Source: a plasmid
Assembly: GCF_058153355.1 (NCBI RefSeq)
Contig: NZ_JBLWLY010000002.1
Length of the DNA stretch: 64,000 nt
Reading direction: 5' to 3' (one strand)
The position numbers and the translations under genes were made by a program. How positions within the stretch are numbered: the first letter of the stretch is position 1; the number at the start of each line of letters is the position of its first letter. The notes under the pieces were generated by a model, which was given only the letters and a program-made list of their open reading frames with translations, had not been told where the DNA came from and ran no database searches. Shown here piece after piece: positions 7,059 through 7,495 of the stretch.

Positions 7059-7495
7059 TAACAATCAGAAAAAATAATGCTTTTAGCCAGTACGCTTTAT
7101 AACCCCGTCCTTCAGGGCGGAGTTATAAGGCGCATTTTTCTGCATGACGGTTTTTGTTTAAGATGGTGACATGAAACGACTACAAACCTTCAAATTCCAG
7201 TTAAAGCCAGATGGTCAACAGGAGCGTGAAATAAGACTATGCAGAGTAAAACGGGGCTTTTGTGGTCGAGATCGTACTTTGTCTGTAGCACTGGAGGGGC
7301 AACGATTGAAACGCTCAGAGTCTACGTTCAGAGTCAGTCAACACCTGATTGATCTTTAAAGCCCTGCGGGCTTTTCGCCTTATATCCCCGCCCGCATTGG
7401 GCGAGGGGTTACGGCGTTTTCGCTAAAAAATAGTCGTAACGTGGTTTGTTTTCCGAATTCCAAGCGGCCCCCTTGTAGGACAAGGGGCCGCAGGT

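Follow-up and report, generated by a model that had tools for sequence, protein, structure and literature searches.

Within the IS200/IS605 family of insertion sequences (IS), two kinds of element are closest to a 344-bp stretch at positions 7083-7426 of the 64-kb plasmid segment analysed here (the whole of which we call the window). The first is ISEc46, an IS605-type element with divergent tnpA and tnpB genes, for which we measured 1763 bp from the TTAG target to the terminus of the right end (RE). The second comprises the IS609/InsQ-like elements of Enterobacteriaceae, which are IS1341-type, carry only a tnpB gene for a 402-aa TnpB (for example NC_019342, 70659-72000), and are common in enterobacterial plasmids and chromosomes according to BLAST. 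The Salmonella element IS200, which carries tnpA only, is more distant than ISEc46, its tnpA 3' end and adjacent hairpin being 79% identical to 7239-7416 of the window. Our analysis indicates that the stretch is very probably an immobile scar, in which two truncated left-end (LE) fragments, one from each of the two closest kinds, were fused at 7237/7238 by a single illegitimate deletion or recombination. A right end, an intact gene and an ωRNA region are all lacking.

Two left ends joined at 7237/7238

BLAST comparison with plasmids and E. coli genomes reveals two separate homologies that meet exactly between 7237 and 7238 (gaaataagac/tatgcagag), with no microhomology at the joint. The left piece, 7083-7237, consists of TTAG followed by the LE (hairpin and leader) and codons 1-22 of tnpB of an IS609/InsQ-like element at 82-85% nucleotide identity; for 7083-7235 the identity to IS609-like elements is 85% (E=9e-45). 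The right piece, 7238-7426, matches ISEc46 at 97.9% identity (E=1e-89) and spans the 3'-terminal 37 codons of tnpA, the hairpin of the LE and the CTAA next to it. It is because of these homologies to ISEc46 and IS609-like elements that the pattern stands above chance. A preliminary description of this DNA had proposed a miniature IS200/IS605-like remnant, in which a 62-aa open reading frame (ORF) with a TnpB-like start lies between GC-rich hairpins. The two matches bear out the IS200/IS605 origin and the word "remnant", and both hairpins are real, although placed slightly off (near 7110-7140 and 7380-7410 instead of 7093-7132 and 7376-7416). The term "miniature" does not hold, since the hairpins are not the LE and RE of one element but the LEs of two elements on opposite strands, and the tnpA 3' fragment encoded across the C-terminal 40 residues of the ORF had been missed. 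The features of the stretch are as follows.

7083-7086, plus strand: TTAG abutting the IS609-like left end, its target and left cleavage site, where the other copies compared have TTAT; the point from which four independent IS609-like copies are homologous to the window
7087-7170, plus strand: IS609/InsQ-like LE, made up of the subterminal hairpin 7093-7132 and the tnpB leader; 82-85% nucleotide identity to copies L002, L003 and L009, fold, and LE alignment
7171-7237, plus strand: tnpB codons 1-22, MKRLQTFKFQLKPDGQQEREIR; tblastn and Pfam matches, with homology stopping at 7237
7171-7359, plus strand: 62-aa fusion ORF from the ORF list, 22 TnpB codons followed by 40 codons across the ISEc46 tnpA 3' end in the wrong frame
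7238-7352, plus strand: ISEc46 tnpA 3' fragment, residues 105-141 and the stop codon at 7350-7352
7360-7375, plus strand: small hairpin AGCCCTGCGGGCT (7360-7372) followed by TTT, just past the tnpA stop; seen by folding and the same in ISEc46 copies
7376-7422, minus strand: ISEc46 LE, CGAAAACGCC followed by the subterminal hairpin 7376-7416; its alignment with IS609-like LEs requires reverse complementation
7423-7426, minus strand: TTAG (CTAA on the plus strand), the target and left cleavage tetranucleotide of ISEc46

The left piece has in common with IS609/InsQ-like elements the LE hairpin, tnpB codons 1-22 and, between them, a 38-nt leader that runs from the hairpin to the start codon, but stops after codon 22, without an RE or an ωRNA region. 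The upstream flanks of four independent IS609-like copies differ from each other, and each reads TTAT followed directly by CCrGTGCGCC, then the hairpin, tnpB and a terminal GGAGGATGTCAA, so that the RE ends in GTCAA. The window copy instead reads TTAG followed by CCAGTACGC. TTAT and TCAA are the most frequent cleavage motifs reported for IS605 elements (PMC9956272). As DNA the hairpin at 7093-7132 folds with -11.8 kcal/mol (z=-3.4), and none of 200 shuffled sequences folds as well. The lineage represented in the window is 15-18% diverged from all copies found; exact-pattern scans yielded no closer full-length relative, and a 27-mer specific to the window LE has zero exact matches in metagenome contigs.

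In the right piece, the frame beginning at 7239 encodes residues 105-141 of the 141-residue TnpA with 97% amino acid identity to the ISEc46 protein (tblastn, E=9e-21), and matches positions 93-121 of the 121-position Pfam profile Y1_Tnp (E=3e-6). Only 185 of the 1763 bp of ISEc46 (plus the target) are left in the window, without tnpA codons 1-104, tnpB or the RE; as judged from these alignments, the right piece is a fragment of ISEc46 and not a copy. The hairpins 7376-7416 and 7360-7372 jointly fold with -16.5 kcal/mol (z=-2.3). The smaller one is possibly the tnpA terminator, and a simple terminator scan did not call it. No further match to either element, as DNA or protein, was found in the rest of the window. 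A separate observation concerns the K. michiganensis plasmid NZ_CP106839 (L008, 1-241 and 2170-2489), where a gene for a 414-aa "transposase" is flanked by two partial ISEc46-like tnpA 3' fragments that are inverted relative to each other; this arrangement is another rearranged remnant of the ISEc46 type.

End polarity and orientation

The borders of ISEc46 were fixed from three independent insertions, located in a plasmid (L001, 924-2690), in the chromosomal gene yfaX (L004, 724-2490) and at a third locus (L007). Uninterrupted yfaX is present in 3914 genomes, and the empty site, as read in E. coli IAI39 (L011), is caagg-CTAA-gaaaacg, compared with caagg-ISEc46-CTAA-gaaaacg for the filled site. 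Given the single CTAA at the empty site, ISEc46 inserts directly 3' of TTAG on the tnpB-sense strand, without target duplication. As a rule of the IS200/IS605 family, insertion occurs 3' of the target motif, which comes to lie next to the LE (PMC8612924). The tnpA-proximal end of ISEc46 is thus its LE, and the tnpB-proximal end, terminating in GCAGTCAC, is its RE. With this polarity, both pieces in the window are LEs, that of ISEc46 on the minus strand and that of the IS609-like element on the plus strand, and each of them lies next to a conserved target tetranucleotide without duplication (TTAG at 7083-7086 on the plus strand and at 7426-7423 on the minus strand).

Alignment of the ISEc46 end with the IS609-like LEs scores 49 in reverse complement versus 37 on the same strand, and the reverse-complement alignment has 29 invariant columns, including TTA.C, CGC and TATAAGGCG. 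The homology of the two LEs explains the 18-nt inverted repeat 7115-7132/7376-7393 (89%) and, given their head-to-head arrangement, the resemblance of the composite to a small element with terminal inverted repeats. More generally, ISEc46 shares homology at both LE and RE with the tnpB-only IS609-like elements, whose target is TTAT and whose RE ends in GTCAA. This similarity of the ends suggests that ISEc46 and the enterobacterial IS609-like elements may be served by the same type of TnpA.

A rival reading is that the stretch is a non-autonomous miniature element with LE and RE on one strand that is moved in trans by TnpA, comparable to the miniature inverted-repeat transposable elements (MITEs) or palindrome-associated transposable elements (PATEs) derived from the IS200/IS605 family. 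Like these, the window unit is small (344 bp), lacks an intact gene and has subterminal GC-rich hairpins at both borders; it also has TTAG at its left border, and its two hairpins are alike on the plus strand too, as the same-strand score of 37 indicates. PATEs, however, are multicopy, and the LE and RE that they retain come from a single element and share a strand, whereas the window unit combines two LEs of two elements on opposite strands, the right-hand one from ISEc46, and is single-copy in a fixed context. Positions 7417-7426 lack, on the plus strand, the GTCAA or GTCAC that marks RE-type cleavage some 10 nt past a hairpin, the 64 kb contain one copy of the unit and no tnpA, and elsewhere the junction occurs only in an identical context. 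We therefore regard a miniature element as highly unlikely, and a scar of two truncated elements as the explanation of the hairpin pair.

Origin, mobility and coding capacity of the stretch

In the proposed history of the scar, an IS609-like element and an ISEc46 copy would once have lain tail-to-tail upstream of the parDE genes, the top strand of the left piece corresponding to the plus strand of the window and that of the right piece to the minus strand. Everything from tnpB codon 23 through tnpA codon 104 would then have been lost by a single illegitimate deletion or by recombination between two replicons, and the homologous LEs joined in this way would imitate a small element with terminal inverted repeats of about 50 bp.

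Three other origins were considered and rejected. Nested insertion of one element in the other was dismissed, as neither LE is flanked by sequence of the other element. TnpA-mediated joining was dismissed because the joint lies inside both genes, away from the TTAG, TTAT and GTCA cleavage motifs, and shows no microhomology. An origin from repetitive extragenic palindromic (REP) sequences and their associated transposases (RAYT) was set aside given the 98% identity to ISEc46.

Several points weigh against an inert deletion scar. The ancestral tail-to-tail arrangement is absent from all databases searched, so the deletion is a step that we infer. The assignment of LE and RE in ISEc46 follows from sequence logic and the empty site, and should be taken as putative to that extent. 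Both LE hairpins are structurally intact, each with its adjoining TTAG, and may thus still be bound or nicked by a TnpA acting in trans; the IS609-like hairpin, with 17 of 18 pairs by our count, is even better paired than in the full-length copies. Finally, the tnpB start context GGTGAC-ATG is kept, and therefore the fusion ORF could be translated. A stronger proposal along these lines is that the head-to-head LEs with their TTAG motifs are recognised by a TnpA of the ISEc46/IS200 type, which would nick opposite strands about 340 bp apart and create a hotspot of recombination and instability at a seam between pINV-type and IncF-type DNA, and that the fusion itself arose from TnpA- or TnpB-triggered breakage instead of a random deletion; we consider this proposal quite unlikely.

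Peel-and-paste transposition requires a Y1 transposase and, on a single strand, both an LE and an RE (PMC8612924). In the window, a top strand with the subterminal hairpins of both kinds of end is not present, since the two ends that remain are LEs in opposite orientation and an RE is missing; an intact Y1 (HUH) tnpA is also absent from the 64 kb, with only residues 105-141 of 141 remaining. Nor does the window contain an ωRNA (reRNA) locus, as shown by the lack of homology to any tnpB 3' end or RE and of any Rfam match: a scan of 6900-7650 at E<=10 returned only matches at chance level. A scan of 6950-7650 for consensus promoters and terminators returned nothing. Without an RE, a transposase, a TnpB catalytic domain or an ωRNA region, the stretch cannot move by strand-specific peel-and-paste or guide a nuclease. 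At most, a TnpA acting in trans might still bind or nick the hairpins, and the tnpB leader might give rise to a short orphan transcript.

The 62-aa ORF, which begins MKRLQTFKFQLKPDGQQ, is present in the ORF list at 7171-7359 on the plus strand. Its resemblance to the TnpB N-terminus, noted as loose in the preliminary description, is real for the first 22 residues, which are 86% identical to residues 1-22 of the 402-aa TnpB (tblastn, E=2.8e-7). The Pfam profile HTH_OrfB_IS605 matches the N-terminus of the ORF at profile positions 1-21 of 47 with 16.4 bits (E=0.0063), below the 21-bit cut-off of the family because only half of the domain is there. The full-length 402-aa relatives match all three TnpB domains in Pfam, that is, the N-terminal HTH/WED region, RuvC (OrfB_IS605) and the Zn-ribbon (TNB), whereas the ORF matches the first of them alone and in part. 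The tnpA frame, which begins at 7239, differs from the frame of the ORF begun at 7171, and the ORF closes at a TAA 7 nt past the tnpA stop. The ORF is thus an accidental by-product of the fusion, in which 22 TnpB codons are followed by tnpA read out of frame; judged from the retained start context, it could yield a junk peptide. That it encodes a functional small protein, such as a TnpB-derived helix-turn-helix regulator, would agree with an ATG in its native tnpB translation context and with the HTH_OrfB_IS605 match of the N-terminus, but is extremely improbable in view of the partial, sub-threshold profile match, the origin of the other 40 residues from out-of-frame tnpA, and the zero matches of the exact 62-aa peptide in a collection of 15 billion proteins.

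Occurrence and plasmid context

An exact-pattern scan for the 20-mer across the junction gave no match in 100,044 representative genomes or in the Joint Genome Institute (JGI) metagenomes, and a 29-mer from the right flank has zero exact matches in genome contigs. Among PLSDB plasmids and complete E. coli genomes each half is found separately and the whole stretch in none. By way of the neighbouring ParD antitoxin we located three E. coli-lineage draft assemblies that carry the chimera at 99.9-100% identity (GCA_043012465.1, GCA_015332025.1 and the Logan assembly of SRR31441161). The order of IS3-family fragment, chimera and parDE is the same in all three, and the chimera has thus been passed on within one plasmid lineage and not inserted repeatedly.

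On its left the chimera has an IS3-family orfA fragment (6756-7001, HTH_Tnp_1), and homology with pINV plasmids ends at 7058; on its right, about 15-45 nt separate it from the parDE/parAB stability region, which is 92% identical to that of a Salmonella houtenae IncF plasmid without the insert. Coverage of the region 5500-9500 by any one PLSDB plasmid reaches 51% at most, and for this reason the region looks like part of a mosaic plasmid. The scar sits at a seam in this mosaic, IS-rich plasmid of the virulence type.

Its position, 166 bp upstream of parD, raises the question of whether the stretch is kept as a hairpin insulator or terminator that shields parDE/parAB from read-through of the upstream ISs, or as a source of regulatory RNA. 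The LE hairpin of IS200 has been described as a terminator, and three stable hairpins lie within 340 bp. The scans cited above called no terminator-like site and matched no Rfam family, however; the tnpB 3' end that would encode an ωRNA and the RE are absent, and parDE occurs in the related S. houtenae plasmid with no such insert, which makes the insert dispensable for the module. Retention for such a role is accordingly very improbable.

The feature is of an already known kind, namely fragments of catalogued IS elements, and represents ordinary plasmid junk. It carries little biological weight, adding a further scar to the IS-rich mosaic that this virulence-type E. coli plasmid represents. 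For annotation, it should be described as two pseudogene fragments and two IS left ends, and not as a gene or a MITE. The unique junction at 7237/7238 can serve as a lineage marker tagging this plasmid lineage in draft assemblies. Of possible use to IS curators are the insertion of ISEc46 3' of TTAG with a tnpA-proximal LE, and the ends common to IS609-like elements and ISEc46.

Several further features were observed in the surroundings. The region 5559-7058 is an IS graveyard, with an IS600-like element (orfA/orfB, minus strand, about 5559-6760) inside an IS3-family left-end fragment that ends at about 7058; a 24-nt spacer (7059-7082) separates the end of this fragment from the chimera. Beyond the chimera, a GC-rich hairpin at 7464-7491 is directly followed by a perfect 24-nt palindrome, TCCATCAAACGATCGTTTGATGGA (7495-7518), and the segment 7464-7518 folds as DNA with -23 kcal/mol (z=-6.8). 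Hairpin and palindrome together lie 75 nt upstream of parD, and S. houtenae p24399 shows partial conservation of the pair ahead of its own parDE. They may act on the parDE promoter as an operator or an insulator. The ORF 4521-5111 on the minus strand encodes OspG, a Shigella-type effector kinase of the type III secretion system (PDB 4bvu, E=1.8e-127), a few kb from the IncF-like parDE/parAB, which comes closest (92%) to a Salmonella houtenae plasmid. A copy of IS100 (at least 99% identity) is located near the left edge of the window, at about 1030-3000, and a chaperone-usher fimbrial operon at about 37700-41550 shares no more than about 78% identity with its E. coli plasmid counterpart, the sfp cluster.
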